A stretch of DNA of 44,067 nt from Chiloscyllium plagiosum (lineage: Eukaryota): assembly GCF_004010195.1 (NCBI RefSeq), contig NC_057718.1:72069469-72113535 (forward strand). The letters run 5' to 3'. Under the pieces are notes generated by a model, which did no database searches, had not been told where the DNA came from, and saw only the letters and a program-made list of their open reading frames with translations. The position numbers and the translations under genes are program-made. Positions 6,050 to 44,067 of this stretch are shown here, in pieces; the first letter of the stretch is position 1; each line of letters opens with the position of its first letter.

Positions 6050-6059
6050 TCACCATTGC

Positions 6060-6193
6060 ACTACACACACACTGTCACATACACACGGACACAGGTACAC
6101 ATAGACACGCACACAGACACCCACACACACCCTTATAGACACACACACTCCCACATGCACCCCCTCACAGACTTAAGACACTCTGCACTCACT

Positions 6194-6225
<32 letters not shown>

Positions 6226-6295
6226 TCACTTTCTCACACTCACAACCCCCACCCCAGACAGACACATACACAGACAAAGACCCACATGCACACAT
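6060..6295 (+). repeat. CA-rich microsatellite in Penelope 3' UTR
   Basis: (CA)n tracts, pure run at ~6194-6220. Confidence 0.9.
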
Positions 6296-6657
6296 ATATT
6301 TTGTGGGGTGAATTTGTATTTGCAGAGTTACATTGTACTTTGCTCAAAAACTGCATGAGTTTATGTAACACTCTGTCATCTCACTTTTTAGATTAGAATC
6401 AATCTAAACATCATGGCATAGACAGAGAACACGGGGGCCAACACCTTCAACATATTGTCTAGCTATCACCATTGTTAACAATTAACCCGAGAATGCAACT
6501 TTAAAAAAAAGGTTTTGTGATTTACACATGAAAGAAGTGAAACTATCACTAACAGTTGAAAGGCTTAACAGACAATCAATTTTTCAATGTATAACTTCAG
6601 TTACATGACACTAAATTTTTGCTATAAATTCTGTGTTATGAAGGAGCCCTCCACTAT

Positions 6658-6692
6658 CACCTGATGAAGGAGCGTTGCTCTGAAAGCTAGTG
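6658..6692 (+). ncRNA. Minimal hammerhead ribozyme (Penelope pLTR)
   Basis: CAC-CUGAUGA-aggagcguugcucu-GAA-AGCU-A-GUG: core boxes, stem I CAC/GUG, palindromic stem III. Confidence 0.8.
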
Positions 6693-6726
6693 TGCTTCCA
6701 ATTAAACCTGTTGGACTATAACCTGG

Positions 6727-7478
6727 TGTTGGGGAGATTTCACTGCGGTGTTTAATGTAGGGCTAGGGAGGGTGACACTTCCAGCCCTGAAATGGTTAAC
6801 AACAGCCAAGCGAGCTGCTGCAGGCGATTGCATGACTGCTGGAGCTTGTAAGGGATATGCATAATGTTAATTAAATCTTGGAGCCTGTAAATACCAGCCA
6901 GTATCAATTGCCCCATCGAAACTCGGGATTAATAAAGAAACTGATCGGAATCTGTAACTGTTAGACAAGTGTGAATTGCTCTATCGGAACCTGTAACTAG
7001 TGAGTTTGAATGGCTCTATTTAAGTCTAAAGTTGATAAGTGTAATTGACAATTTAGTTAAACTAAAACTATTGAAAATGGCTAGCCTGTCAGACGCATAG
7101 TAATTCCTTGACACAATGGACTATTGAATACGGGATCGGAACCGCTCCCAGGGATGGTTGAGCCATTGTCAAGCACAGCAGGAGCTGGACAGGCACTTCG
7201 ATGCGGCCAATAGGAGGACGGATCCCCAGCGCGCGCAGATGAATGGACCAATGGGGAAGGCGAACTGACCGGGGACTCCAGGCAGCGCGAAGTATAATTG
7301 TGTCAACTTTGAACGGGAAGGGAGAACGCCTTCTCCAACGAATGCATGCTTGTAGATTCGTTGTATCAGTTAAGATTCTGTGAATAAACTGCTGTCTGCG
7401 TCTAATCATAGTTGCCAGTGTGAGTCTCTCCTTCCAAAAGAACACGCAAAGACGGGACCCTCCGGGTCCGTCTTAACA
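6727..7478 (+). mobile_element. Putative solo LTR of an unidentified family
   Basis: TGTT...AACA termini, internal short direct repeats (ggagcttgtaa/ggagcctgtaa; atcggaatctgtaact/atcggaacctgtaact), two CCAAT boxes, TATA-like site ~7292, AATAAA at 7383. No short TSD. Confidence 0.65.
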
Positions 7479-7494
7479 TTGAGCCCTCCACTAT

Positions 7495-7529
7495 CACCTG
7501 ATGAAGGAGCGTTGCTCTGAAAGCTAGTG
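7495..7529 (+). ncRNA. Minimal hammerhead ribozyme, identical duplicate of 6658-6692
   Basis: Same 35-nt motif inside an 87-nt direct repeat. Confidence 0.8.
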
Positions 7530-7677
7530 TGCTTCCAATTAAACCTGTTGGACTATAACCTGGTGTTGTGTGATTTTTAACTTTCTTAAATTAAATACTC
7601 TTGTTGTTTCCCTCAAATTCTACTTGATGCTCTTATTCGAGTTTGAATTAATTTTCACACTGTACTTTGCATGGGAA

Positions 7678-8218
7678 TGAGATATTAAAGAGTTAATTTG
7701 TTCTGCTGACCTGCAAGAAATTGAATACCCTGGGGGCAGGATGAGATTTCTGTTCTAGAGGTAGAATTTAAGTGATTTTGCATTGTAATTCCTTACCATT
7801 CAGAGCATTTGTATCATCATCACCTATTCAGAAGTCAACTGGAACATTACAATTGAAATTCTGACTGCACCCTACAGTTACAAAAAAACACAATTCACAC
7901 CAGATCTGGCCATTAAGGAATGATTTGCGTTGTACTGTTTCTGGAAATGATGTGGTCACTAAATTGTGTTTTGAGGGGCATGTAACTGTGGGTTTAGATT
8001 AGATTAGATTACATTACATTAGATTGTCTTGTGGGCATTACTGACTGTGATGTAAAGATTTTATATAAAGGAAGGACTGTTCCTTTGTTCAGGGAAACCA
8101 CTCGACATGCTTCTCAAGCTTACTGTACTGACTTAATAAAATTTGGCTGTTGTTCACAGAAGTTGGTGTATTGCAGTTGCATCAAGTGTGAAAGAATGTC
8201 AGGAAAAATAACTTAACA
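7678..8218 (+). mobile_element. Solo LTR of class I ERV family
   Basis: TG...CA termini, alignable to LTR 11580-12182, flanked by 4-bp TSD GGAA (7674-7677, 8219-8222), no PBS after it. Confidence 0.85.
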
Positions 8219-8329
8219 GGAAGGCCTCATAAACAATGCCTGGATGAAATTTTATTTGGCAGCTCATCTGAAATTGTGGATGTTCAAATAAACGAAGCAC
8301 ATGACCTGCCCACCAACTACAAACAGTGT

Positions 8330-8640
8330 CTCCCATTTGATTTATTTTTGGTGATTTCAGATGACAAATTAGATGTGAAGGTATGCTGTGAACAGGATGC
8401 CAAGAATTTACAGCATGATTTGAACAACGTGCGAGAGTGTACATACAATATAGAAGCAGGCCTTTCAGCCCACCATGTTAATGCCGACCAACAAATACCA
8501 AAATATAACAATCCCAATTACCTGCACTTGGTACATAACCTACGACGCTTTGGCATTTTACATATTCATCCAAATGCTTCTTAAATGTTGCATGAGTTCA
8601 TGCCTCCACCACCATTTCAGTAAACATGTTTTATATATTT
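8330..8640. mobile_element. Old CR1 fragments (RT piece on +, 3' tail on -)
   Basis: ISDDKLDVKVCCEQDAKNLQHDL resembles the CR1 FADDTKL...LQ.DL region; the 8450-8640 stretch resembles a CR1 3' end in reverse. Confidence 0.55.
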
Positions 8641-10135
8641 ATCACTGATAGACTGTCTTTATACTGATACCCACCTTGGCAAGGAGGGAATGAGTAATAT
8701 CATATTGTGTACCTGATGGCACCTCCGGTTGAGGCAGGCCAAAAGCATGTCAGATCATGTTCAACATGTCAGCAAAACAATGCCGTTCAAGGGGTACACT
8801 GCATAACAGGGAGAACACCCTTGCCAGGAGGTAAATTTGAATGTATCCAGCTTGATTTCATTTAACTGCCACGTTGTTATAAGTATTGTCTTTTTATTAT
8901 TGACATATTTAGTAGATGGATTGAAGCCTTTCTGATCACTAATAATAAAGCCTCAACAGTGGTAAAATTACTCCTGACCGAGATCATACAGAGGTTTGGA
9001 GTGCCTCGGCAGCTTAGTTCAGACAATGGCCCCCACTTTGTGGCTTGTTGTTGAGTTTCCCTATGTGAGGCACTGCATATCCAGCAGCAATTCCATTGCG
9101 CTTATCACCCTCTGGTGGCAGGAATAGGGGCAAGAGCAAACTGGATTCTTAAAACCAAACTGACTAAGTTAATGTCTGAAACAGGCCTTGCCTTTAGCCC
9201 TGTATCACATGACGCTTACCCCATACTCGACCACTACACTATCAGCAGCAGGAATAATTTATGACTGAACCAGTAGGAACCCTTGGGATGCAAACACAGA
9301 CCCACCCACCCACGTAAACTTAAATATTATGGGAGATGAAATGCAGAGATACTTTCAGCAGCTAACATCGCTGCTGAAGTTTCTCCACTCATGGGTAAAG
9401 CACGCCTTCGGACCACCAATGGATCAAAATTCAGATGACCAGAGCGAGCCCCCCAGACCATAAACAGGAGAACTCATGCTGATCAAGCTTGGACACAGAT
9501 GGAAAATATCATTCCAGATGCTCCTGTAGACACCAATGACAAAGTCCAAGGACAGAGTCGCTCACTCCACCTGACTGACTGTAAACGATGGTCCCCTCAA
9601 GTAGTCTAAAGACTACACTTACAGTCTACATTAGGCCTAGAGGACAATTTGTTTTATAAGACACACACTTTTGCATGGTAATTGAACTGTGTGTTACCCA
9701 TTTGCCCAGTCAGTAGAGACAGCATTTGTAGCCATTCTTGGGTGGACCTCCCCCTCAAGCTATACAGCACAGATACTTCAAACACCCGCTGTATTGGTCA
9801 AAGCTGGAAGTTTATAAGGATGTCATCGGGACAGTGCATAGAGCTGATAAATTCAGATAAGACTCAGTCCCCTAGCTGCACAGGGACGCGGGGAAGATAT
9901 GGTACAACTTGCTATGATCCTATTAGCTATCCACTTTGCTTGTCAGGACGGGGGGCCTGTCCTTACGCTTTGGTTCCCACAAATACCTTGTGCCCAAAAG
10001 CAATGTGTGCATAGGACTGCCAGGTGTGCAATGGAATATTCACCTGAATCTGTGACAAGGAACTGCAGGAAGGCAGTTCATTAGTGGGCATTGCAATGGA
10101 ACCCATGTGAGCTCAGCCTTGGGTCATATCCTTTC

Positions 10136-10447
10136 TTTGGATGTAGGTTTGCTCGCTGAGCTGGAAGGTTTGTTTTCAAACGTTTAATCAACATACCAGG
10201 TAACATCTTCAGTGAGCCTCTAATGAAGCACTCATGGTGTAGCCTGCTTTCTATTTATATGTTTAAGTTTCCTTGAGTCAAATATATAAATAGAAAACAG
10301 GCTTCACCACCAGTGCTTCATTCAGAGGTTCACTGAAGATGTTACCTAGTATGGTGACAAAACCTCTGAAAACGAACCTTCCAGCTCAGCAAGCAAACAT
10401 ACATCCAGAACCTCAACCTGAGCTACAAATCTTCTCAAAAGTTGCTA
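10136..10447. mobile_element. Short palindromic Penelope derivative inserted in env
   Basis: 10139-10260 is an imperfect reverse complement of ~10284-10407; each arm has a decayed hammerhead (cactgaagatgttacctag...). Confidence 0.8.
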
Positions 10448-10983
10448 ATATCTTTTTTATGATTACCAATTGATTGGATCAGAAGAAAACTCCAGTCAGG
10501 AGAGAAACTGGAGATATAAACAATTTGCGACTGCCAATAACCAAGTGGTGAAATGCAACATCCGAAAGAGGGCGTGTGTTCCTTCTCAACGGGACCTTCA
10601 CCATGGCCACTCTGACTCTACCCACCCTGTTTGCTGTAGGGACAGTAGGATCACTCACTGTCCCATGCCCACAGAAGGCACCTGCCCACTGCAGAGTAGT
10701 ATCATGAGCTATTGGTCAGGAGTTTTGTGCAGATTGGAAGGATCCAGTGACTCTGGGCTCTTCCCTTGGTCACAGGTTCCTGGGGACATTACCCTCGGGG
10801 ATTAGCAGGAACAATGACAGCAAAGAACTGAAATTACCTCATTTGTTAACCATCCTGGGAAACAGTACAGTGAGGGGACTAGATGCAGTTAATCGGGAAT
10901 TGGCGGAGTTAAGGCTATACACGCAACTGACCAGATATGCAGTAGACTATCTATTGGCCCAACAAGAGGGTGTGTGTACAATA

Positions 10984-11268
10984 GATTAGATTAGATTACT
11001 TTACAGTGTGGAAACAGGCCCTTCGGCCCAACAAGTCCACACCGACCCGCAAACCACCCATACCCCTACATTTACCCCTTACCTAACACTACGGACAATT
11101 TAGCATGGCCAATTCACCTGACCTGCACATCTTTGGAACTGTGGGAGGAAACCGGAGCACCCGGAGGAAACCCACGCAGACACGGGGAGAATGTGCAAAC
11201 TCCACACAGTCAGTCGCCTGAGGCGGGAATTGAACCCGGGTCTCTGGCGCTGTGAGGCAGCAGTGCCC
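10984..11268 (-). mobile_element. HE1-type V-SINE in env TM
   Basis: tRNA-derived head, V-domain, CR1-like tail, (AGATT)n; TSD ACAATA at 10978-10983 and 11269-11274. Confidence 0.93.
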
Positions 11269-12600
11269 ACAATATTACTCCTACAAATGCATCACCCGGG
11301 TTATGGATGAATCATATAGCACAACCCGTGTCATTCAGTCTATTTAGAACCAACTGAATCATTTCAGACAAGGCCATAAGAATGGAGATGGATGGCTACT
11401 GGAAGGATCCTGGGGATTCTATGTACACCATGGGCTAGTGATTTCTGTTATTATAATTACTGTCTATTGTGTGTCAAAAACTTGTTTAAGTACTGGCTGT
11501 AAGATACTTATGAATAAATTGGTAGCACCTTTTTCATCCTCCATCCAAATAGTTCTCATGGAATGATAAAAGGAGGGAATGTAATATTAAAGAGTTAACT
11601 TGCCCTGCTGACCTGCAGGAAATTCGATATCATGAGGCTAGGGTGGGATAACTCCGACTTACAGGTAGATTGTAAGGAAGTTATATTCCCATCTCTTGGC
11701 ATTCATAGCCATTTGCTTGGCCATTTTCTAGTTCTTCACAATCCATTTTACATTGTCATCTCCTACTATTTACATTTTTATCCCCTATTCAGAAAATCAA
11801 TAAGAACATTACAGTTGGAGTTGACTACTTCCTGTAGTTTAAAAAATTGATTTGCAACAGATTTGACCATTAAGGGATGTTTACATTATATTGTTTCTGG
11901 AGAAGGTCTTGAGTCTTGAGTGGCATGTGACTATGGAGGGATAGCTGTGGGTTGTCTTGTAGGCATTACTGACTGTGATGTAAAGATTCTGTATAAAGGT
12001 TGGACTTTTGTTTTGTTCAGGGAGAGCTTTGACACGACTCTGCAAGCCCTGCAAGGTGTGTGTTAGAAGTTCCTCCAGAAAGTTTGTACTGTACTGTGCT
12101 TAATAAAATTTTGCTTGTTCACATAAATTGGTGTTTGCAGTTGCATCATGTGTGTACGAATCTCAGGAAAAAGAACTTAACAGCTCCACATCCTGTCAAA
12201 TAAGGCATACACTTGGACAAAATATTCAGAACGACTCATGTGGATAGATAAGTCTAAATAAGGCACACACTTTGATTCAGAGACTTGTGTATAAAGAGCC
12301 AGAAGAATACACTTTCTTCAGCAACACTTCGAAGATTGATTTTTTAAAGAAGGTACCTTACGTCAGAAGGCATGGTGAAGACCCCGAGCAGAGTTTCAGC
12401 CAGTTGCCAACTCTCCCAGGTAATAATGTTCGGGTTGAGTTGCAGAAAGTGAAAGACAAGAGATTGAGATATCTCCAATAATTAGAAGTATGTATTATTT
12501 GTTTAAATGTTTAATAAATGAATTGTGTTTTATAGCTCTAAGTGTCACCATGTATCTTCATCTATGTACAGTTGTCTCTCAGAGACAGGCAAGCTAATTT

Positions 12601-12618
12601 TGGCGTCCCTTGGTGGGC
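12601..12618 (+). promoter_or_regulatory. Primer-binding site, tRNA-Asn
   Basis: TGGCGTCCCTTGGTGGGC matches 17/18 the complement of the vertebrate tRNA-Asn 3' end (TGGCGTCCCTGGGTGGGC) and sits just after the LTR. Confidence 0.88.
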
Positions 12619-12699
12619 GTCAATAAGAGGGAGCTTTCTTTTACTCCTACATTAGACCAGGTAACTTCAGACTCTTCCAACAACCAGTCTGAGCCTGAA

Positions 12700-14420
12700 T
12701 TAAGAATGCAACTGCCACATATGATGGCCAGGATTAAGTGGGTACCCGGATGGACGAGGTAGAAATTTGGTCGCAAGAAAGACAAAGGACACACTAAAAA
12801 GGTTAGCACTAACAGAGAATGGTGGGTCTAGGGGACTCTAACTGGAGAGGATTTCGCAAATAGTACATGACTGGGAAATGGCCAAAGTACAGTGAGTATA
12901 GTGGTGATACAGGAACTCTTTGGAATACGACAAAGGATGTTTAGGAAAACAGGCACTTTTCAAGTGCAGAAAGCTATTGAAATAGGCTGCATGTTAAAAG
13001 ACTAGGCAGAAAAGCAGCAGCGAATGCGGAGTCTGCGAACACAGGTAACCGAGCATAGAGAAGAGATAAACAAACTGACTGAGAAGGTAGGGATTTTAAA
13101 AAACCAGACAGATACAGAAATCATGCCTGTGAGCCAGTATCAAATGCAGTGTGAAAAATTGATTAAGAGAAAAGGACAAAAATAAAGAGGAAACGAGAAA
13201 AAGGGCTCACGTACAGACAGAAGAGCTGAAGGAAGTGTAATGATTTGAAAACACCTGTGAATGTAGTACATAAGGCAGCACAGGAGCGAAAAGGGACCTC
13301 AGGCAATCATATAAAGTCAGATATCTGCACAAAGAGGGATAATATGTATATTTGCGACACGACTCTTTGAGAAGGTATGGGAGGAACCTGGGGAGGTCTA
13401 GTAGATGAAGTAGCCAGATATGGAAAGAAAGACCCAGGGGAATGGCGTCCCTCTCTGGATGGAGGGCAGGGGAAAGATCTATTCCCCAATAGTCCCCCGA
13501 TCACTAGGAGACAACAGACAGTAGTCTCAGAGAGCAACAATAACCACCCAACATCACATATACCACCTCTTAAGAGTTCAACAGCTAAGAAACATAGCCA
13601 TAGGGGATTATCAGTTAGGCAACGAACCCTGGGAGCTGTCCCAAGTACCGAACCGTACATGGGTTAGATAATAAGGAGAAGAAGAAACTAATACTGATGT
13701 ATCTCCATCCCAATACACATTCAGCTTTGCCAGAGCCACAGAATGCACCAGCGGGACATCAGGCAAGTTAAGGGAGGCCATGGGAGCTAATAGAGAGGAC
13801 TCAGTGGACGCCCTGAATAAGTGCAGACGGAGGAAAGTAAAGCATTCAAGTGTGTTTGCTGCAAGGCTATACGTATCGCTGCAGAGTGTATATGACGCAG
13901 GGCTAACAAAATCTGGCTGCACCTTTTGACAATCGGTGAGTCCATACACTGGCATCCCACGGGCACAGTGTCATTGTAAAAGATCTCTGACAACGTGTAA
14001 ACACACATACATGTGTACGGAGGAAAATGGTCAGAGCTTTAGGAGAAGGAAATGAGAGGGTATAAGTCTCAGAGAGGAAGATTGATATCTCTTAGAGATC
14101 AACAGGCAGCATGAAGAAATTAAAGAAAGGGACCAGTCCCAACGGGAATACTAGTGCCTATCAAATGGTTGTGAGGGGGCATGAAATGGATGATGAGCCC
14201 TGCTCATGGTCACAGGGAGTGGTAGGGGGTCATGAAAATGTTTTAATTGCGGGAAAGGGCACTATGACAGAGATTGTCCAAAGCCCTGGAGGTGCAGAGC
14301 AAAACAGATCCAGGTCCAACTCTTGCCATAAGAGGGCCCAGTCCATGCCACAGAATTGAGTCCAAGTGGGTTGTACTCCAATCCTCAATGACAGTCTCAG
14401 ACCTCTCAAATATGGATGCG
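12700..14420 (+). pseudogene. gag-like region with N-terminal coiled coil, heavily disrupted
   Basis: Lies between PBS and protease; heptad-like RMRSLRTQVTEHREKINKLTEKVGILKNQ at ~13021-13110. Boundaries approximate. Confidence 0.55.
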
Positions 14421-16779
14421 TGATGCAACATAGGATGGGACAGGGAGGCCCTTAGTGGATGGTAGGGTTGGAGGCCACCCTATCACTTTCCTTTGGGACA
14501 TGAGAGATCCCGCACCACCCTGAACATATCTGCTGTAAACAGGTGACGATTGGAAAATAGAAACAGAAATAATCTTGAGTGTAAAGAAGGACATGTGACT
14601 CGCCCTTTAAATAGACACGGAGGAGGGGTCGGGTTGATGCACGTGATAGTATTTAGAAAACTCCCAGCAAATCGACAGCATATCCTGGGAAATGATTATA
14701 TGGCCACAGCAGGACTGTGCTTTGGCCCAGTGAACTGCATGAGGTGGCAAATGCCAGGAATAAGTGAGTAGTTTTTTTGTTGAAATCCTTGCAGGACAGT
14801 AGAAGGAGAGCACGTGCCTGGTGGGAGAAATATGGACTTGAACGAGGACCTGGTAGTACAAAGATTATTGGACAAAACCAGAAAGCGTTTCCCAAACATG
14901 ACTGTGGACAGATGCAAGAGGTGGTGTGCATTCAGGCCCAGATCCAAAGCCCCAAAAGCAGTATGGATTCCCCAAGTAGGTGGAAGGTGATACAGAAATA
15001 GTAGTAGAAAGACTGGTAGTACAAGGGATGTTAAGGCAAATCGTCTCTACGAACAATTCACTTTTGGCCGTTAAAGAATCCAATTGACTATTGATTATCG
15101 AAAAATAAATAACACCCTTAACAGCATGGTTACTAGCCCCGAAACCATGATTAAACAGAGTGAATCTGCACAGTGGTTTACAGTCCTGATATAAGTAATA
15201 GATTTGGTCAATCCCCCTTGTCCAAGGAGTGTCAGTATAAAATTGCATTTACCCTTAAAGGACAGCAATATATGTGGATAGCTTTGCCACAGCCATTTCA
15301 CAACTCCCCCTCAATGGTTAAGTAATGGTTTGCAGGACTTTTCTAGGCCAGACTGCCTCATACAGTATGTTGAAGGTTTCTGTTTGCAGAAGTAAATCAA
15401 TCAGGAGCATGATCAGCTCCTGAAATGAGTTGTTGCAACTTACTAAAGAAGCTTGGGTTAAAAATGAATCCAAAAAAGGTTCAGATAACGAGGCAGCAAG
15501 TGAGTTGCTTAGGAGTGGTGTTAACACCAGAAAAAAAAAGAGAGCTAGACAAATAAAGAATTGAAACAGCAGCTAGACTCCCTATCCCCACAAATGAGAA
15601 GTGATTAAAGATTTTTTGGGGGGGCTTGATTGGGTATTTACAGAGACTATATTGATGATTTTGTCACAAAGGCAGCACCACTAATGATATTACTGAAGAA
15701 AAATGCCACATGGGAATGGAAGCCAGTACACACAAGCAATAACAGTTTTGAAAAGAGGTTTGGCGATTGCTCCTGCCCAAAAAAATCTCAAATCCAGCTA
15801 AACTATTTTCCATGGAGAATGCTGCAACGGAGTTCACAATATCAGTGATCTTATTGCAGAGGTACATGGTCAGTTGAGACCAGCAGCTTATGTATCACGC
15901 ACACTCATGCCCAGTATATCAAGTGCACATGGCATGCAAAAGGCATTTATTGGCAATATTCTGGGTAGTACATTTTACCTACTTAGATGGTTGAACCCAT
16001 TGACAATTTTGCCAGAACATGCATCCATTCAGATGTTGCTGGATGGACGTATGGCACAGCGAGCCAAAACAGAATTGCTAGATGGATGCTGTTATTACAA
16101 GGGAGGAATATAGAGGTAAAAAACTGTAAAAAAAAAAATAACTTAATTTACCAGGAGACACCCCATGAGTGAAAGGTGGTGATAGCAAATGATTCCAATT
16201 GTATCAAAACGAGAAAGGAGGAAATACCGGTAAACAGAAGACAGAGAATACCCAAGACAAGAGAGAGAAAGAGACTGAAACAGGAGAAAATAAAGAGAAA
16301 AACAAATCACTCTTAAAAATGTTTGTTGACGGCTTTTTTTCTGTCCAGGTTGGAGAATGGAGAACTAGTTGTACTATCTACATGGCAGATGAGCTAGGGT
16401 GAGAAGTGGATAGTATAGCCCTCAATTTGCCAAAGGCCATGAGTGCTCAAGCAGCTGAGTTGGCAGCAGTGGCATATATATGTGAGATAACCAGATAAAT
16501 TCACCTAGAATCTATTATCTATTCAGAAAGTATGTACATGTGCAACAGTTTGATGGACTACCTATCCTTGTAAAAGGCTAGATGCTTTGCATTGACAGAT
16601 GGGAAGGTCCTACCTTCCACCTCAATGCTGAGATACATTTTTGAAAAGGTGCAAGGGAAAGAATGTAGAGTCATGAAAGTGATACTTCGCCACAAAGGCA
16701 GCACTACGAATGATGTTAGTGAAGAAAAATACTAAAGAAAATGATTCAAAATTATCACTAGAGGGAAATAGAAAGGCAG

Positions 16780-16912
16780 GCGAAAGTGAGGACTGCAAAT
16801 GCTGGAGATCAGAATCAAGATTAGAGTGGTGCTGGAAAAGCACAGCAGGTCAGGCAGCATCCAAGGAGAAGAAAAATTGATGTTTCGGGCAGGAGATTTT
16901 CTTGCTCCTCAG
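16780..16912. mobile_element. Short Penelope pLTR insertion splitting the RNase H GNRKA-D motif
   Basis: gctggaaaagcacagcaggtcaggcagcatcc motif shared with 22378-22470. Confidence 0.7.
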
Positions 16913-17724
16913 ATGAATTAGCCAAATGAAGGACAATAGCTGGAGGAGAATGGCAGCTGCAGATGGAGAACACAGGAGCATAGAAATAGAAAGAAGCAGC
17001 CCCAATCGAATTAACAGGAGAACAAAGGAAGCATAGAGAATTATAAAAAAAATTAGTAGGACAGGAGTCAGAGGAATACAAGGAATGAAAAGGCATACAT
17101 GTAAAAGAGGGAGCCATATTATGTGAAGGAAATCTTGGAGTACCATCGAGATAAAGTAATCAGATGATTTATTAGTACCACCATGTATATGGACACCAAG
17201 AGTTGGAAAACACCTTGGAGCGGTTGAAGGAATGAAAGGGGACATGGAACATCATGTGAAAAATTGCTTGATGTGCAAAAAATAACCCCGACAAAAATGT
17301 AAAGAAGGCATTCCTTAGACACATAAGGCCAGTAGAGAGGCCCTGGACAAATTTATAAATAGACTTTATGAGTCCCCTATTCCCAGCTATGGGACGATAG
17401 AAGTGTATTCTGGTGATAGTAGATCCTTCACCAAATGGGTAGAGAAATGTTTCATTCAAAATGATACTGCTAAAATCATAGCAAAAGTCTTGTTAGAAAA
17501 TGATTTTACTTGTTGGGATTTACCAAGGAGGGTTGAGTCAAATCAAAGGACACATTTTAAAGCCCAGGTGATGCAGAATGTCATGACACTGCTAGGGATA
17601 AAACAAAGGTTCCAGATATTCAGTAGGCTACAGTCCAGTCGGATAGTCAAAAAGAATTAATTGAACCTTGAAGACAATGTTGGCCAAAATGGTGCAGCAG
17701 TAGCAGACCACTTGGGTGACAGTG

Positions 17725-18043
17725 ATTAGATTAGATTAGATTACATTACAGTGTGGAAACAGGCCCTTCGGCCCAACAAGTCCACACCGACCCGCCGAAG
17801 CAAACCCACCCATACCCCTACATTTACCCCTTACCTAACACTACGGGTAATTTAGCATGGCCAATTCACCTGACCCTGCACATCTTTGGACTGTGGGAGG
17901 AAACCGGAGCACCCGGAGGAAACCCACGCAGACACGGGGAGAACGTGCAAACTCCACACAGTCAGTCGCCTGAGGCGGGAATTGAACCCGGATCTCTGGC
18001 GCTGTGAGGCAACAGTGCTAACCATTGTGCCACCGTGCCGCCC
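17725..18043 (-). mobile_element. HE1-type V-SINE in integrase
   Basis: Full SINE; TSD ACAGTG at 17719-17724 and 18044-18049. Confidence 0.95.
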
Positions 18044-18579
18044 ACAGTGCTTCCTTATGTCCTAATGATAATAAGAACTGTAGTTTCCTTTACAAAATTT
18101 ACCCCTTAAAGTTTGATGACGGGTCGAGTGATATATGACCTGGAGTCACTGATAGGATTAGATCTGTCTGAACCAGAAGTAGATGGAATAATGAAAGATA
18201 GGTGGGTACAACGGCTGTTTGAGAGTGTAAAAGAAATGAACTCATATCATTTGCAGCCATGGAGAAGGAAGAAACATCAAAGTCAGGTCCACTTTGGTTC
18301 CAAGACAAAGCCAAAGGGGTCAGATGGACTCCTCCGGCTCACCAATAGAAATGAAAATGAAGGAAAAAGGAAAAGGGCAAAAAATAAAATCGATAAAACA
18401 TTTACTCGCCAACCAAAATGGATGAGGTGAAGGGATGGAAGGAAGGCTAGAATCAGCACATGAATTGGCTGAGGGTATGAAGACATTAGCACTATAAATA
18501 CAATAAAAGGAATAAAATCAGATTGACTGCACATAACAGCAGAAACTACATTTGTTTTGTATGAAGAATCACCATAAAA

Positions 18580-19550
18580 TCATGGAAGATCATTACCATT
18601 GTTTTCATTGGAATAAGGATCCTTTCCAGTGAATACTTTGACTGATATTTTTTAATGAATGGGAGGGGCAACATTAGTTGTTGTGAGTGGCACATATTAC
18701 AAATTCAAACAAATGTCATGGTAATGGTCACATGTTGGCAAGAAATGTGGGTTTTTGTGTTGCCATGGCCTGTCCCTGGACATTAGAACCCTACTTTCAA
18801 ATCTTTGCTCCAGTGGCCAAGAAAGCAGCATTATCAGTTACACGGTCTGTGAAAAAATTAATTCACAGGTGACTTGAAAGGTTCAAGGAAAAATTTCCTT
18901 TGGGTCGAAAATTATGTGTACTTGGATTTTTCTCAAATATGCCTTAGTCAGAGATACCGATTATGTCGCCACAGCAGCCTCAGGATAGGTTGTGGTGTAC
19001 CTCAAATGAACAGAATGTGGCAATCAGCAATATCTCTTCTGACTTGACCATTAGCCACAAAGTTATGTTTAACCCAGAACCCAAAGAGAAACTGCGCACA
19101 ACTCTACACATCCACCCAAATGAGACAGACGACAATTTACAATGATTTGCAGCAATGGAATTTCCACTTATTCCACACCACTGCAGATTGGGTAAAGATC
19201 ATTTCTGAGGCAAAGGAAGATATCCATAAATGGGCTATGCACGAGATGGAAATTAAAACTCATGTTGAGGAGGCAATTAGGACTTACAGGTTCCAAGCTT
19301 CGAGAGTAAAGTTTGGGAATTGGGGACTGAACTGTCAGGTCCATCCGTAGATCAGAATTGTGTCTCATGTGATTGTTAGATTACAATTTGTTATACTTAT
19401 TGTTGTGATAGTCTTATTTTGTTTGTGAAAAAGCAAAGTTAAGAAACGGAAGGGACTGACAACAAGGATTGGTCTCAGATACCAAAAAGATAGCTCATAT
19501 AGAAGAGAGTTTGTAATGGTTACTTATTATAGGGTAGGAATATTGTAAAC
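18580..19550 (+). pseudogene. env-like membrane protein remnant
   Basis: Follows IN; helical DWVKIISEAKEDIHKWAMHEMEIKTHVEEAI, then hydrophobic IRIVSHVIVRLQFVILIVVIVLFCL and basic tail KSKVKKRKG. Confidence 0.6.
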
Positions 19551-20047
19551 ATAGCTAGTTAATAGTCTTTCCTACTATTTGTTCTTTACATTGATATCAT
19601 GCATATCTTAGAAGATATGATTTGGAGATGTCAGTGTTAGACTGGGGTGTACAAAGTTAAAAATCACACAACACCTGGTTATAGTCCAACTGATCTATTT
19701 AGAAGCATTAGATTTCAGAGCGCTGCTCCTTCATCAGGTGGTCCTTTCCCATTCCTCCACTTCTCGCCTTCAAACAACCACCAAACCTCAAGCAGATCAT
19801 TGTCCTGAAAGCTGGGCAGTTTGCTACAAACAACGTCATACAACCATATCACGATAGACACTGCAAGATGTGCAAGTGTCTCAACACGGATACCACCATT
19901 ACACGTTGGGACACCTCCCACTGTGTACGTGGTAGGTACTCATGCAATTCAGCCAATGTTGTCTATTTTTACACTGCAGGCAAGGATTCCCTGAGGCATG
20001 ATACATTTAGGGTGTAGGTTTGCTCGCTGAGCTATAGGTTTGATATC

Positions 20048-20085
20048 CAGACGTTTCATTACTTGGCTAGGTAACATCATCAGTG
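20048..20085 (-). ncRNA. Minimal hammerhead ribozyme
   Basis: Reverse complement: CA-CUGAUGA-uguuaccuagccaaguaau-GAA-ACGU-C-UG (GUC cleavage triplet, palindromic ACGU). Confidence 0.75.
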
Positions 20086-20259
20086 GCGACCTCCAAGTAA
20101 AGCGAAACTGTTGTCTCCTGCTTTCTATTTATAGGTTTGTCCTGGATGGGGTTCCTGGGGTTTGTGGTGATGTCATTTCCTGTTCATTTTCTGAGGGGTT
20201 GATAGATGGTATCTAGATCTGTGTTGTGGTTCTGTTCGCCGAGCTGGAAGTTTTTGTTG

Positions 20260-20297
20260 CAAACGTTTCGTCCCCTGGCTAGGCGACATCATCAGTG
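20260..20297 (-). ncRNA. Minimal hammerhead ribozyme
   Basis: Reverse complement: CA-CUGAUGA-ugucgccuagccaggggac-GAA-ACGU-U-UG. Confidence 0.7.
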
Positions 20298-21652
20298 CTT
20301 GGGAGCCTCCTGTGAAGCGCTTCTTTGATGTTTCCTCCGGTGTTTATAGTGGTCTGTCCCTGCCGCTTCCGGTTGTCAGTTTCAGCTGTCCGCTGTAGTG
20401 GTTGGTATATTGGGTCCAGGTCGATGTGTTTGTTGATGGAGTTTGTGGATGAAGCACTGATGATGTTACCTAGCCAGGTAATGAAATGTCTGGATATCAA
20501 ACCTATAGCTTAGCGAGCAAACCTACACCCTAAACCTCAACCTGAGCTACAAACCTTCACAAACCTTGGATGATACATTGGAGAGACCGAGAAGAGGCTA
20601 CAGCAACAGATGAATGGGTACCACACAACAATCAACAGACAGGAGAGTTCCGTCCCAGTCGCAGAACACTTTAGTGATCGGGACATTCAACCTCGGACCT
20701 TCGGGTGACCATCCTCCAAGGGACTGGCAACAACGCAAAGTGGCCGAATAGAGAATGATAGCCAAGTTCAGTACCCATGGGAATGGCCTCAACCGGGACC
20801 TCGGGTTCATGTCACACTACAGGTGACCCGAATGCACTACACACACTACATACATACACACACGCACTCCTACAGACCCTCTCTCATATGCTCACACATA
20901 CACTCCTGCACACATCCTCTCACAGACTTTTATCCCTTTACACTCACACACAAGTTTGTGGGTTGAATTTGTACTTGTAGAATTACATTTTATTTTGCTC
21001 AAAAACTGCATGAATCCATGTAAGATTCCATAAATCTGTTTTGTTAGATTAGAATCAGTCTGAACATTGTGGCACAGACAGTCTCACATAGGGCACCTCA
21101 CACCTTCAAAGCATTATCTGAGCCAACATGACACCAATTGTTAAAGTTCACATGAGAATGTAACTTTAAAAAAAGTTCTGTAATTTACATAAGAACTGGA
21201 ACCAACATGCTCATCCTAAAAGATGAGAGACTTAACTAAAAATCCAGGTCTTTTTCAATATATAATTTCAGTTACATCATACTGTAACTTTTGCTATAAA
21301 TTGTGTCTTATAATCTTATACTTCACAACCACCTGATGAAGGGCTCCGAAAGCTAGTGCTTCCAAATAAACCTGTTGGACTGTAATCTGGTGTTACGTGA
21401 TTTTTACAAGATATGGACAATATATTTGTGCGAAGTGAAACGGATTTGTAATTTTGTTTATGCAATGTCTATAGTTTTGAGAAATATAATGATCTAAATG
21501 GCATTTCAGACTGCACAGCAGAAGTAATGCTACATTGAGCAGACATTGCTGTAAGGGGCTAATGCTCACCACTGTCTGGAGGTGTCCTGGAAGATGTAGA
21601 AAACTAAGTAGAGATGATCCTCAGATAAATCTTTGGGTCAGAAGAGGGGAGA

Positions 21653-22183
21653 TGTTGGATAAGGCTGAAGATGACAGGAACAGATAATAGGCTTAACAAT
21701 GGACTGTTTTTATGTGAATGGAACGTGAATGAATCATGCTGGTATGCCAACAGTTAAAACTGCAGGAAACCAGTAACTGCTGTCTCTACCAGATAAGCCA
21801 TGTATTTGGACAAAATATTTGTGATCGCTCACATGCATAGATTAGTCCAAATAAGGCATACACTTGGCACAGAGACTTGTGCATAAACAGCCTTTGTTCA
21901 GCAACACTTCAAAGATTCACATTGTAAGAAGGTACCACATGGTGGTACCACAAGGCATGGTGAGGACGCCACGCAGAGTTTCAGCCTGGCCAACGGCCAA
22001 CTCTCCCAGGTAATAACATTTGGACTTGTTTATGGACATCAGAGTAGTGAAAGACAATATCTTTAATGTCAAAAGTGTGTTTCTGGTCAAGTAATGAATA
22101 AATTAATAGTGTTTTATAGAGCTCTAAATCTCTCCGATGCATCTTCATCAATGCATGTACTGTTGCCTCAGAGACGGGCAACA
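21653..22183 (+). repeat. 3' LTR of the Loki/spuma-like provirus
   Basis: TGTTG...CAACA termini, directly after PPT, AATAAA ~22098, homologous to 12183-12594. Confidence 0.88.
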
Positions 22184-25685: not shown

Positions 25686-25847
25686 CTGTTGATCATCAGG
25701 TGTCCATATTCCACAAGTAATCTGGCTATCCAAATTAATCTCAGAAGACCAATGTCGCTGCCCACTGACAGATCCAACCAGCACAAAGCCATCTCGGTAA
25801 GAAATCAGTGCCTGTGTACCATCATGGCTCCAAGTAAAGTCGCTCAC
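25686..25847 (-). CDS. TULP4: TULP4 coding exon (exon 3 equivalent), WD40 region
   Basis: Reads VSDFTWSHDGTQALISYRDGFVLVGSVSGQRHWSSEINLDSQITCGIWTPDDQQ (162 nt), with TTTTTCAG acceptor and GT donor at 25685. Continues in frame from the 37218-37346 exon. Confidence 0.96.
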
Positions 25848-26159
25848 CTGAAAAACAATCAAAGGGAAAAAACATTGAAGTAAAATAATTCATGCATTTC
25901 TTGATTCTTTTTCCTTTTTATTTCCCCCCAATGCAGTGATCAGTATCCTAGCAAATCACATTACTAGGTGTATGGAGAGAGCATTAAAACCAATCAGAAG
26001 CAGCAGGGCATTGTAAGAAGGGAAATATAAGTTTATGAAACAAAAGTATATGGTGCCATTTCAAGGGAAACAGGATAACCAAGGCGAGAATAGGGCACAT
26101 TAGTATCCGAGGAAGAAACATGTGGAGCTGAAGGACAGGGTGTTAAATGACTATTTCTG

Positions 26160-37217: not shown

Positions 37218-37346
37218 CTGTGCTCCACGATCGTTGACCAGCTCAACCGACCACCTCCCTTCATACTGAATCCACACAAAAATTCCTCCATCGGCATCAC
37301 ATGTTGCAAGTTTCTGAAATGGCTCATTCCATCGCACAAGTACCAC
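37218..37346 (-). CDS. TULP4: TULP4 coding exon (exon 2 equivalent), WD40 region
   Basis: Minus strand reads VVLVRWNEPFQKLATCDADGGIFVWIQYEGRWSVELVNDRGAQ (129 nt, phase 0). AG acceptor at 37348-37347 and GTAAG donor from 37217. Matches the TULP4 N-terminal sequence as I recall it. Not in the ORF track. Confidence 0.96.
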
Positions 37347-38295: not shown

Positions 38296-38835
38296 CAAGG
38301 GAAAGAGTTAAGTTCTGAGTTTTGTGAAACAAGAGGTTCAGCTGAACATGACTTAGGTCAGATAAGAACGTGCAGTTAACAACGGGGTGCTAGAGGCAAG
38401 GGTAATGGGTTAACAAGGTGGAAAAGCAGTCATTATGTAGAGCCATTTAACAATATTGGAAGAATTCAGTATGTAAGGTCAGTTAACAAGGTTAAAAGTA
38501 TTCATGATGTGAAGCCAGTTAAGGTTAAGAACGTTCATTGTCTAACACCAGATGGCTTAATCTTTGCTATTGGCATTCACTAATTATAAAGGTCACACAA
38601 TCAATATGTATGTTGCCTTATTTGGATCCTCCGTCCTATAAGATGACAATATAATTTATTAAGAAACTACTCTTCCGAAGAAGACCATGAACTCATGTCT
38701 CTGTGCACATGGACAATCGTTCTCTCTCCCTTCAGGGCCTGGAATGAAAATGGAGGTTAAACTACACTGTGTCTCAGCGTTTTGCATCGATTGGAGCGGG
38801 AAGACAGGATGACAATATTGGCGCAGTCGACCGGA

Positions 38836-39399: not shown

Positions 39400-42300
39400 T
39401 TACTGCCTTTGCTGTTGAATTCATGTACTGCTGGACATTGGAGTGCGTCTGGGAAAATTAAACAACAGTGAAATTGACAACTGATCTTGGAGGAACTTGT
39501 TTGGGTTAGGTCACAGCACAGAAACAGATATGTGGATGTTTTAAGTCTGCAGTAGTGAGTGGAGTGGGTTCTTTCTTGGTTATATGTTTTATTGAGCTAT
39601 GTCTCTTGAATAAACTTAAAGTATAAGCCATAAGTATTCATTTAACCTGGCGCAGTGTTTTGTAGAGGAATAAGAGAGTGCTATTTTCTGGGTCTGTAGA
39701 CTGAAAGAAGCAAAAATTGCCCTTAGTAGAATGATATGCTTGTCTTGTCAGATGTGGGAGTTTAGGGACAGTTTATGGGTTACTGAGGATTTTATGTGCA
39801 GTAAATGCCATTGGCTGCAAATCCTATCAGATCGAATGGATCAGTTGGAGAGGCAGTTAAGAGGCAAATAGCAAGGGGATGTGATGGACAGCAGTTAATA
39901 GGAAGTGAGGGGGCGGAAGTCTCAGATGCAGTCACATAGATTGGTTAAATACAGGAAACGTAAGAGAGGTAGGCAGGTAGTGCAGGAGTCTTCTGTGGCC
40001 ATCCAGATTTCAAACAAGTATGCTGTTTTGGAAAATGTAGCGGGTGATGGGTTATCAGGGGAACATAGCATGAACAGCCAGGTTTTTGGTATTCAGACTG
40101 GCTCTAACATAATGGGAGATAGGTCAGGTTCCAAGCGATCTTAGGGACTCTTTAATCAGAGGTACAGACAGACATTTCTGCAGCCAGCAACAAAAAATCA
40201 GAATGATGTGTTGCTTCCCTGGTGGCAAGATCAAGGATGTCTCAGAGGGTGCAAAATGTTCTCAAGAGGGAGAGGGGCCAGGAGATGATCATTGTACACA
40301 TTGGAACCAACAACACAGGAAGGGAAAAGGTTGAAATTCTGAAGTGAGATTACAGAGAGTTAGGCAGGAATTTAAAAAGGAGGTCCTCGAGAGTAGGAAT
40401 ATCCGGGGGCTACGAGCTTTGAGGGCAGGAATAGGAGGATAGTACAGATGAATGCATGGCTGAGGAGCTGGTGTATGGGAGAAGGATTCACATGTTTGGA
40501 TCATTGGAAGCTGTTTTGGGGTAGAAGTGACCTGTACAAGGAGGACGGATTGCACATAAATTGGAAGGGGGCTAATATACTGGCAGGAGATTTGCTAGAA
40601 CTGCTCGGGAGGTTTTACACTAGTAAGTAGAGAAGTGGGGGTAGGGAAACCCATGGAGACAGTGAGGAAAGATTTTAATCTGAGACTGGTACAGGGCAGG
40701 CAGGGACAAAGCAGAAAACAAGGTAGGACCGATAAATTAAACTGCATTTATTTCAATGCAAGAGGCCTAACAGGGAAGGCAGATGAACTCAGGGCATGGT
40801 TAGGAACATGGGATGGGATATCATAGCAATTACAGAAAAATGGCTCAGGGATGGGCAGGACTGGCAGCTTAATGTTCCAGGATACAAATGCTACAGGAAG
40901 GATAGAAAGGGAGGTAAGAGAGGAGGGAGAGTGGTATTTTTGATAAGGGATAGCATTACAGCTGTACTGAGGGAGGTTATTCCCAGAAATACATCCAGGG
41001 AAGTTATTTGGGTGAACTGAGAAATAAGAAAGGGATGATCACCTTATCTGGATTGTATTATAGAACCCAGAATAGTCAGAGGAAAATTGAGAAAAATCTG
41101 GAAGGATATCTCATTCTGTAAGAATAATAGGGTGGTTTTGGCAGGGGATTTTAATGGTCGAAACATAGACTGGCATTGCCATAGTGTTAAGGGTTTAGAC
41201 GGAGCGGAATTTGTTCAGTGTCTACAAGAAAATGTTCTGATTCAGTACGTGGATGTACCTACTAGAGAAGGTGTAAAGCTTGGCCTAAACTTGGGAAAAA
41301 AGGCAGGGCAGGTGAGGTGTCAGTGGGGGAGCACTTTGGGGCCAGCTACCATAATTCTATTAGATTTAAAATAGTGATGGAAAAGGATAGACCAGATCTA
41401 AAAGTTGAAGATTTAAATTGGATGAGAGCCAATTTTGATGGTATGAGGCAAAAACTTTCAAAAGCTGATTGGGCACAGATGTTTGCAGGTAAAGGGACGG
41501 CTGGAAAATGGGAACCCTTTAGAAATGACATTACGAAAGTCCACAGAAAGTATATTCCTGTTACGGTGAAAGGAAAGGCTGGTAGGTGTAAGGGATGCTT
41601 GATGACGAGAGAAATTGAGGGTTTGGTTAAGAAAAAGAAGGAAGCCTATGTAAGGCATAGACAGGATAGATTGAGTGAATCCTTAGAAGAGTACAAAGGC
41701 AGTAGGAGTATAGTTAAGAGAGAAATCAGGAGGGCGAAAAGGGGACATGAGATAACTTTGGCAAATACAGTTAAGGAGAATCCAAAGGGTTTTTACAAAT
41801 ACATTAAGGACAAAAGGGAGAGAATTGGGCCCCTCAAAGATCAGCAAGGTGGTTTTTGTGTGGAGCGGAGGAGATGGGGGTGGGGTAGGGAGATACTAAA
41901 TGAGTGCATTAGTGTTTACTGTGGAAAAGGATATGGAAGGTATAGAGTGGAGGAAAATAGATGGTGACAGCTTGCAAAATGCCCATGTTACAGAGGAGGA
42001 AGTGCTGAATGTCTTGAAACACAAAGGTGGATAAATCCCCAGGATCTGATCAGGCGTAGCCTAGAACTCTGTGGGAAACTAGAAAAGTGATTGCCGCGCC
42101 TCTTACTGAGATATTTGTATCATCAATAGGCACAGGTGAGGTGCTGGAAGACTGGAAGTTGGCTAACATAGTGCCACTGTTTAAGAAAGGTGGCAAGGAC
42201 AAGCCAGGGAACTATAGACCAGTGAGCCTGACATCGGTGGTGGGCAAGGTATTGGAGGGAATCCTGAGGGACAGGCTGAGAAGTGGCAGATGGAGTTGAA

Positions 42301-43107
42301 TTCAGATAAATGAGAGGTGCTGCATTTTGGCAAAGCAAATCTTAGCAGGACTTGTACACTTAATGGTAAGGTCCTACGGAGTGTTGCTGAACAAAGAGAC
42401 CTTGGAGTGCAGGTTCATAGCTCCTTGAAAGTGGAGTTGCAGGTAGATAGGATAGTGAAGAAGGCGTTTGGTATGCTTTATTTTACTGGGCAGAGAATTG
42501 AGTACAGGAATTGGCAGGTCATGTTGTGGCTGTATAGGACATTGGTTAGGCCACTGATGGAATATTACATGCAATTCTGGTCTCCTTCCTATCGGAAAGA
42601 TGTTGTGAAACTTGAAAGGGTTCAGAAAAGATTTACAAGGATGTTGCCAGGGTTGGAGGTTTTGAGCTACAGGGAGAGGTCGAACAGGCTGGGGCTATTT
42701 TCCCTGGAGCATCAGAGGCTTAGAGGTGACCTTATAGAGGTTTACAAAATTATGAGGGCGTGGATAGGGTAAATAGGCAAAGTCTTTTCCCTGGGGTGGG
42801 AGAGTCCAGAACTTGAGGGCATACGTTTAGAGTGAGAGGGGAAAGATATAAAAGAGACCTAAGGGGCAACTTTTTCACACACAGGATGTTACGTGTATGG
42901 AATGAACTGCCAGAGGAAGTGGTGGAGGCTAGCACAATTGCAACATTCAAGAAGCGTTTGGATGGGTATATGAATAGGAAGGGTTTGGAGGGATATGGGC
43001 CGGGTGCTGGCAGGTGGGACTAGATTGGGTTGGGACATCTGGTCAGCATGGACGAGTTGGACCAAAGGGTCTGCTTCCATGCTGTACATTTCTATAACTC
43101 TATGACT
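39400..43107 (+). mobile_element. Long CR1 LINE: ORF1 (Zn finger, zipper, SGNH esterase) and ORF2 (APE; RT core deleted)
   Basis: CLSCQMWE...CSKC, ISNKYAVL, HIGTN, DGLH; YFNARGL, AITEKWL, GDFN; NYRPVSLTSVVGK; tail ctataactctatga. 5' boundary approximate. Confidence 0.92.
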
Positions 43108-43204
43108 AGAAGTTTATGGATTGCAATAAAGTTGATAATATAATAAATAGTGAACAGAGTAACAGACATCAAGAATTCAAAGGTTGAAACAGGCAGACAC
43201 AATT

Positions 43205-43350
43205 TACTGTAGTTAAATGTATAACTGTATTCATACTGATAACCACCTTGGCAAGGAAGGAATGAGAGAGGAAATGCAAAGATACTTTCAGCAGCTAACA
43301 TGGTCTCCAGAGTTTCTCCATTCACAGGCAAAGCACATCTTCAGACCACC
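43205..43350 (+). mobile_element. Internally deleted class I ERV integrase remnant
   Basis: atactgataaccaccttggcaaggaaggaatgag matches 8661-8694 and is joined to gaaatgcaaagatactttcagcagctaac matching 9338 onward. Confidence 0.85.
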
Positions 43351-43399
43351 ACCCACCCCTTCACAACCTGATCTGACTGATACAATCAGCTCCCCAGTC

Positions 43400-43726
43400 A
43401 TGAGCAAGAGAAGTGAAGAAGCTAATAACGGTGAAGAGGAGGTCAGTACGCTTTTTGTCAGTAGCGTTCCTGTGTACATTAAACCACGTGAGCTTTACCT
43501 TCTCTTTCGATCATTTAATAGATATGAAGGTTCACTGATCAAGCTAACATCACAATAGCCAATTGGCTTTATTACATGTAACAGCAGGCAGGAGGAGAAG
43601 CAGCAAACAAATGTTGGGTCCACCTAGCCTGCTACTGTAGCTGCAACTGTTGCACTTCACACTCAGATGTGCTGGTATCCTACATCTGAAGCAACTCTGA
43701 CAGGATGGAGGTCTCGTCAGCTTTGT
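43400..43726 (+). pseudogene. RBPMS2: Processed RBPMS2-like pseudogene (RRM start plus C-terminus, internal deletion)
   Basis: [47 protein letters not shown]...ALHTQMCWYPTSEATLTGWRSRQLC; no introns; stop at 43556-43558. PVxIK favours RBPMS2 over RBPMS. Confidence 0.88.
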
Positions 43727-43901
43727 TCAGTATTGAATTGTCCTTATCCAAGAATTCAGATGTCTCCGTGGAGTGATGCACAAGGACAGGCTGAATTTTG
43801 TTTTCACGTTGGACTTTACTAAAGGGGATTTTGGAGAACTGGCTCGTTTCCATTTGACTTGGAGGGTCACCAAGGACTGTGAATTTAAAAACTTTACTGG
43901 T

Positions 43902-44067
43902 GGGGGGATCCAAGATGGCGGCGACCCAGTAAGACTGAGTCTATAGTGCTCCTCCCAAGACTTGGGCACAGTGGGTCACCTACCCCCTACCAAGCTCACC
44001 AAATCATTTATAAATCATTTATAATAGTTTAGTAACTGAATTAGTGGTGTAATATTATATTTAAGCA
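43902..44067 (+). mobile_element. Probable 5' end of an L1-type LINE
   Basis: GGGGGGATCCAAGATGGCGGCG: G-run plus YY1 motif typical of L1 5' termini; runs off the window. Confidence 0.5.

Follow-up and report, generated by a model that had tools for sequence, protein, structure and literature searches.

How did part of the RNA-binding protein RBPMS2 come to be read in one frame with the remains of a retroviral integrase in the shark Chiloscyllium plagiosum, and could this union ever have mattered? The window, i.e. the whole stretch of 44,067 nucleotides that we analysed, contains the chimera close to its 3' end. A reading made from the sequence alone had proposed either transduction of a host mRNA by an endogenous retrovirus (ERV) or a LINE-made retrocopy that landed in ERV debris. 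We favour the first option over a single LINE retrocopy; the second is tenable only if the ERV that received the retrocopy then amplified it. With a probability of roughly 0.82 we propose a single template-switch capture in a class I-like ERV, followed by non-autonomous spread and then by neutral decay.

The chimeric frame was confirmed as a 113-residue ORF (43217-43558), which runs, as had been claimed, from integrase through a linker into the RNA recognition motif (RRM) of RBPMS2. Pfam has no match for the ORF, for the ORF tail or for the integrase remnant alone, and ORF residues 68-112 match RBPMS/RBPMS2 RRM structures in the PDB (E 1.6e-14). The feature is wider than the ORF and than its earlier bounds and spans about 43107-43901 (Table 1).

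Table 1. The RBPMS2 element, its neighbours and the reference ERV (window positions).
Feature	Position	Strand	Basis
5' internal segment of element	43107..43223	+	high summed depth from ~43107-43124; diverged contigs run into integrase pieces
Integrase remnant 1, first half of zinc-binding region	43224..43266	+	39/43 nt to 8652-8694
Integrase remnant 2, helix after catalytic core	43262..43351	+	76/89 nt to 9329-9418
Linker with virus/host breakpoint	43352..43399	+	same linker in P0001, P0002, P0005
Spliced rbpms2a codons 1-72, RRM to second helix	43400..43615	+	45/63 aa to rbpms2a P0003; PDB match
rbpms2a codon 158 to C-terminal tail	43616..43726	+	junction identical in P0001, P0002, P0005
3' segment of element, host 3' UTR or viral	43727..43901	+	high copy; diverged contigs connect it to the RBPMS2 tail
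Later insertion, 5' end of higher-copy repeat, presumably L1-like	43902..44067	+	depth jump; other copies stop matching at 43902
LINE, presumably CR1-type, 5' end approximate	39700..43106	+	endonuclease and weak RVT_1 matches
Reference ERV of donor family: LTR - integrase - env - LTR	7673..12183	+	LTR pair; rve; env HR1-HR2

The first part of the chimera is of viral origin. Both remnants align with integrase sequence of an ERV that is bounded by LTRs and lies within the same window (z 18.8 for the first and z 24.3 for the second, 30 shuffles each), and they overlap by 5 nt with one mismatch, 639 nt (213 codons) being absent between them. The region between the two targets in this reference ERV matches the Pfam rve core (E 5e-12); the catalytic core is thus among what has been lost. 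The C-terminal integrase helix named by the sequence-only reading is indeed the helix that follows this core; its 'IN N-terminus' stands as to integrase origin, but not as to extent, as only the first half of the zinc-binding region is present.

The reference ERV lies 31 kb upstream of the RBPMS2 element and all its frames are broken. Its LTRs are identical at 408 of 509 nt (80%), an env HR1-HR2 stretch is recognizable at E 0.00097 (below the curated cut-off), and neither an RBPMS2 match nor a reverse transcriptase was seen in 7673-12183; only integrase and env are kept, and a SINE and other repeats have been inserted. The donor ERV is presumably of class I (gamma/epsilon-like), to judge from its integrase and env motifs; PDB matches were weak (best E 0.024). 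No relative was found among the viral contigs searched. A second, different ERV (12193-22181, plus strand) begins ten bases after the 3' LTR of the reference ERV; its LTRs (12193-12592 and 21786-22181) are 70% identical, a primer-site-like motif lies near 12598, and decayed gag, pol and env are apparent by eye.

The element most likely lies in an intron. It is located upstream of, and on the opposite strand to, a minus-strand exon (37221-37346) that matches the Pfam WDR35/TULP4 N-terminal domain (E 2.1e-10, below the curated cut-off) and the peptide of which is presumably that of TULP4. A second exon of this type was read by eye at ~25690-25850 (minus strand), and both window ERVs as well as the RBPMS2 element are antisense to the WDR35/TULP4-type gene.

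The second part of the chimera is a spliced host message. From 43400 on it is 71% identical to C. plagiosum rbpms2a (P0003), and the C-terminus of RBPMS2 is recognizable in 43622-43726 (66% to the turtle protein over 35 aa). The poly-alanine-type tail and the N-terminus identify the parent as RBPMS2 rather than RBPMS. Two earlier claims about this part, that it is intronless and that its C-terminus follows an internal deletion, both hold: the sequence is continuous over at least two exon borders (between EEE and VRT, and after HAQ), which were inferred from isoform break points of C. plagiosum, and codons 73-157 (85 codons) are missing, the sequence resuming at 158. The deletion begins two codons before the isoform exon border that follows ALN and is therefore not the result of plain exon skipping, which was rejected since the deletion also ends off isoform borders. 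In the window copy the host part is interrupted by stop codons at 43556-43558 and 43625-43627, and there is local frame damage near 43588-43612. The C-terminal peptide of rbpms2a isoforms X9 and X6 (P0003/P0004) has counterparts in antisense LINE sequence in several parts of the window and seems to be an exonised or mis-predicted repeat.

Virus and host are joined in frame, a short distance from the start codon of the host gene. In the reference ERV as in P0002 the integrase helix is followed by the peptide PMD, and contigs have a cluster of loose ends at 43373-43383; on these two grounds our best guess for the breakpoint is a position near 43385, within 43352-43399. In direct DNA alignment with the window ERV this linker gave no significant score (z -0.1).

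Both ends of the window copy are hidden by later insertions. Summed depth climbs at ~43107-43124, at the end of the CR1-type LINE, and the match to other copies of the element breaks off at 43902, where the summed depth of the public DNA run X1 rises from 1,119 to 40,940; the segments 43107-43223 and 43727-43901 therefore belong to the element. The LINE on the 5' side contains endonuclease (E 1.1e-5) and weak RVT_1 (E 0.012) matches and resembles, at its 3' end, the ends of other LINEs of the window; it presumably belongs to the CR1 family. The insertion on the 3' side is presumably L1-like, to judge from L1 5' ends and the target motif; a T-rich/A-rich target motif is located at 43884-43891, and 43887-43901 could form one half of the target duplication of this repeat.

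The segment 43107-43223 has no clear match to the window ERVs, and 43107-43225 gave no significant score as an LTR on either strand. The visible 175 nt on the 3' side (43727-43900) do not resemble the interior of the reference ERV (9419-11575; z 0.5, 80 of 300 shuffles as good). Compared with the 5' LTR, 0 and 2 of 300 shuffles were as good (z 3.2-3.5, among ~20 comparisons), compared with the 3' LTR 83-84 of 300 (z 0.5-0.6), i.e. the LTR likeness of 43727-43901 appears weak and concerns one of the two LTRs only. An LTR-like stretch (38296-38835, plus strand), just before an N gap, ends in a primer-site-like motif that we take to resemble a tRNA-Ser site. Its likeness to the reference LTR is weak (8 of 200 shuffles as good); it is an unlinked candidate for the element's 5' LTR, on the far side of the CR1. 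Upstream of 43107, the loose ends of four contigs of run X15 resemble positions 8121-8139 (minus strand) of the reference LTR with 3 mismatches in 19, a motif for which 2 of 100 shuffles were as good against the 5' LTR on the opposite strand and which may be due to chance.

These borders bear on the strongest competing explanation, according to which a LINE made an rbpms2a retrocopy within an ERV copy, its hallmarks were deleted and the ERV amplified the passenger. L1-like and CR1 elements do flank the window copy, and as its 3' side is cut at 43902 a poly(A) could sit beyond the window. Such a course is nevertheless unlikely: as the sequence-only reading had noted, poly(A) and target-site duplication are lacking in the visible part, where the longest A-run in 43727-43900 is 5, AATAAA and ATTAAA do not occur and the two flanks of the host part have no common repeat above 6 nt. 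Moreover, ERV sequence does not resume in the 175 nt visible past the host part, and the position of the join, in frame and near the host start, argues against it. The same reading had set against its proposal a single copy bounded by poly(A) and duplication, with ERV sequence resuming behind it; what was found are many copies, neither hallmark in the visible part and no resumption match in 9419-11575.

The chimera is not confined to the window. Three RefSeq models of C. plagiosum (P0001, P0002 and P0005; XP_043545055.1, XP_043563611.1 and a third, annotated RBPMS2-like) carry the same integrase-derived extension, which occurs in 3 of the 121 proteins examined (scores 72-89, next best 36). The deletion junction KNA/xFT is found in the same three of 121, all of which are without parent residues 73-157. 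Parent position 38 is Ser in the three models and in the window copy, as against Pro in 118 of 118 other proteins; the pattern search for this position missed P0002, the serine of which was seen separately. The models are 66-70% identical to the window ORF and thus represent other loci; they lie on three different chromosome-size contigs (138, 72 and 157 Mb), and the parent rbpms2a is located on one of 27 Mb. All four copies have one common viral 5' flank. The dispersed copies thus have junctions and derived changes in common, i.e. a single founder was re-mobilised, and the three 'RBPMS2-like' genes are copies of the element with virus-derived N-termini. In the representative search one of the 150 matches listed (P0005) aligns from the start of the profile. 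Window 43553-43555 and residue 79 of P0001 encode Gln, the corresponding residue being Lys in the parent, P0002 and P0005, a difference that hints at subfamilies within the element.

Public sequence data indicate how far the founder has spread. In 4 of 24 listed runs, compared with positions 43095-43935 at 80% likeness, the same junctions recur in many diverged contigs of two organisms. DNA run X1 (organism A) contains 1,565 and DNA run X5 (organism B) 1,967 related contigs. A single position of the RBPMS2 part is covered by as many as 87 distinct contigs in X1 and 93 in X5; from these counts there are at least tens of copies and probably hundreds. On the RRM part the summed depth in X1 is 5,557-10,223 versus 23.2 for the locus-identical contig, a ratio of 240-440 that is not to be equated with true copy number. 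Among the longest 24 of ~3,900 pieces, contigs bridge the integrase-RBPMS2 junction (X1 record 2, X5 record 19, X15 records 10 and 13) and the transition from the end of the RBPMS2 part into the 3' segment (X1 records 6-8, X5 record 23), all at 82-85% identity, and further diverged contigs link 43107-43223 to the integrase pieces (records 1, 9, 17 and 18).

One might suppose that the chimera arose once and was then spread by segmental duplication, LINE transduction or a DNA element, all the more as no LTR is tied to any copy. We consider this less probable than even the LINE retrocopy, as the copies are spread over at least three chromosome-size contigs with a star-like pattern of divergence, and as the region that they have in common contains defined internal sequence to either side of the chimera. 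That a single retrocopy came to lie beside ERV debris and in frame by chance, as might be thought from a window copy that is decayed and boxed in by other repeats, is ruled out, as the junctions recur at three further loci and in numerous diverged contigs from two organisms.

We therefore return to capture by template switching, for which the following course may be envisaged. A class I-like ERV of the bamboo-shark lineage would have packaged spliced rbpms2a mRNA, and its reverse transcriptase would have switched templates just past the integrase helix and copied the host message; co-packaging and template switching of this kind have precedents (PMC5131818, in excerpt). The founder would have fixed the two deletions common to the copies, one of which removed the integrase core and the other rbpms2a codons 73-157. 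This defective founder may then have been multiplied by proteins of a helper virus via the LTR route, its presence in multiple copies being observed; non-autonomous spread of LTR elements has been described before (PMC4299795, PMC11905727, both in excerpt). The copies have since decayed neutrally, and the window copy, presumably intronic and antisense to the WDR35/TULP4-type gene, was later struck by the CR1 and the L1-like element and is now without function. Abundance of rbpms2a mRNA in the germ line would explain its capture: zebrafish Rbpms2 resides in the Balbiani body and in germ granules, and fish mutant for it become males (PMC6049948, in excerpt).

The capture appears to be old. A contig of organism B matches the window locus at 96.8% (10 differences in 311) and is probably its orthologue, and paralogous contigs differ by 15-18%; because of these two values we roughly infer that the burst is, in terms of divergence, about five times older than the split of A and B. 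The mutation rate available for the epaulette shark is given per generation (PMC10587355, in excerpt). Moreover, Ser62 is retained in the copies and Ala64 in two of three, as in the catshark protein, and present-day C. plagiosum rbpms2a has Cys62 and Val64, which likewise points to an old capture.

The copies themselves have decayed, to judge from their substitutions without purifying selection. Host-invariant positions are altered in 4, 7 and 8 of 51 cases in the three models and in 12 of 45 in the window, and copies agree with the parent in 40-44 of 51-52 residues, with each other in only 35-40. The stop at 43556-43558 is absent from most related contigs; the stop at 43625-43627 coincides with the point where P0005 also ends, and P0001 reads through it. 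With its stops and frameshifts the window copy lacks an intact, selected cargo ORF and is a dead relic. In the raw RNA run X21, 23 of 12,955,460 reads matched, all partially and none at 95% or above, and 331 contigs matched in run X15, the RNA status of which is a guess; neither run gives expression of the window locus.

Could the cargo nevertheless have mattered? It seems doubtful that the capture was selected, be it because its product could have acted as a decoy of oocyte Rbpms2 granules and aided the germ-line spread of the element, or, alternatively, by copies feeding small RNAs against rbpms2a, which zebrafish require for ovary fate. In the founder the integrase deletion, the virus/host join and the rbpms2a deletion are each in frame, a combination for which chance alone would give ~1 in 27. 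This evidence is weakened, as the feature was noticed for being in frame and as open frames are what RefSeq models are selected for. In-frame joins are favoured both by nonsense-mediated decay and by switches from one coding sequence to another. Two of the four copies stop before the C-terminal tail.

The composition of a putative product can be compared with what is known of the parent. The match to the RBPMS RRM structure ends at chain residue 67 of 98 for P0001 and at residue 97 for the parent. Glu97, Lys100 and Thr103/Lys104 are needed for CAC binding, and a loop forms part of the dimer face (PMC4783296, in excerpt); with a numbering offset of 8 the deletion is predicted to remove the equivalents of these residues as well as this loop and to retain helix 1. 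The C-terminal 20 residues of RBPMS2 drive oligomerisation (PMC10570038, in excerpt) and are kept in the DNA. The product would thus lack the CAC-reading residues of the RRM and keep helix 1 of the dimer face, with the oligomerising tail in one copy. AlphaFold2 was uninformative (mean pLDDT 49.1 for P0001, 44.6 for the full-length host control). For the small-RNA version the PxyMasc retrocopies of a moth are an analogue (PMC9674220, in excerpt); if copies did make small RNAs against rbpms2a, this would touch on shark germ-line biology.

For annotation the element is a warning, as three C. plagiosum RefSeq 'RBPMS2-like' genes are copies of it, and reads of true rbpms2a may be confounded by such copies. 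In the largely open-access literature covered we found no paper on an RBPMS2-ERV family; shark ERV surveys may list it in their supplements.

The element resembles several known systems. Like a LINE-made processed pseudogene it is an intronless, decayed copy of a host mRNA, but the shark copies share one fixed viral junction, and neither poly(A) nor target-site duplication is seen. In LTR-mediated retroposition (PMC5131818, in excerpt) host mRNA replaces part of the internal ORFs, as it may have done in the shark; poly(A) and target-site duplication are likewise lacking, further cycles are non-autonomous, and a single switch is recognized by differences from the parent that the copies have in common. 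Those cases are young and low-copy, with LTRs and microsimilarity demonstrated, whereas the shark event is old and heavily amplified. In ERV-Hako with SUSD6 or SPHKAP (PMC11905727, in excerpt), too, part of a host mRNA is propagated by a defective ERV subtype; ERV-Hako is a Group II ERV with 3' UTR pieces and few copies, whereas the shark element joins coding sequence in frame to what is left of an integrase. CrocERV31-nectin3 and CrocERV29-KIT-ligand (PMC4299795, in excerpt) share with the shark element an ancient ERV, a spliced host mRNA after pol and several copies with common indels, their capture predating speciation. The crocodilian elements, as described there, are present in 6 and 9 copies with ORFs under purifying selection; the shark element has tens to hundreds of copies, an internally deleted cargo and no integrase core, and is decaying. 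Taken together, the RBPMS2 capture extends gene capture by ERVs to cartilaginous fish and is unusual for its copy number, its oocyte-fate cargo and its three in-frame junctions, and as its apparent copy number greatly exceeds the 6-9 of the crocodilian elements, the family could be used to find out whether a captured cargo is driver or passenger.
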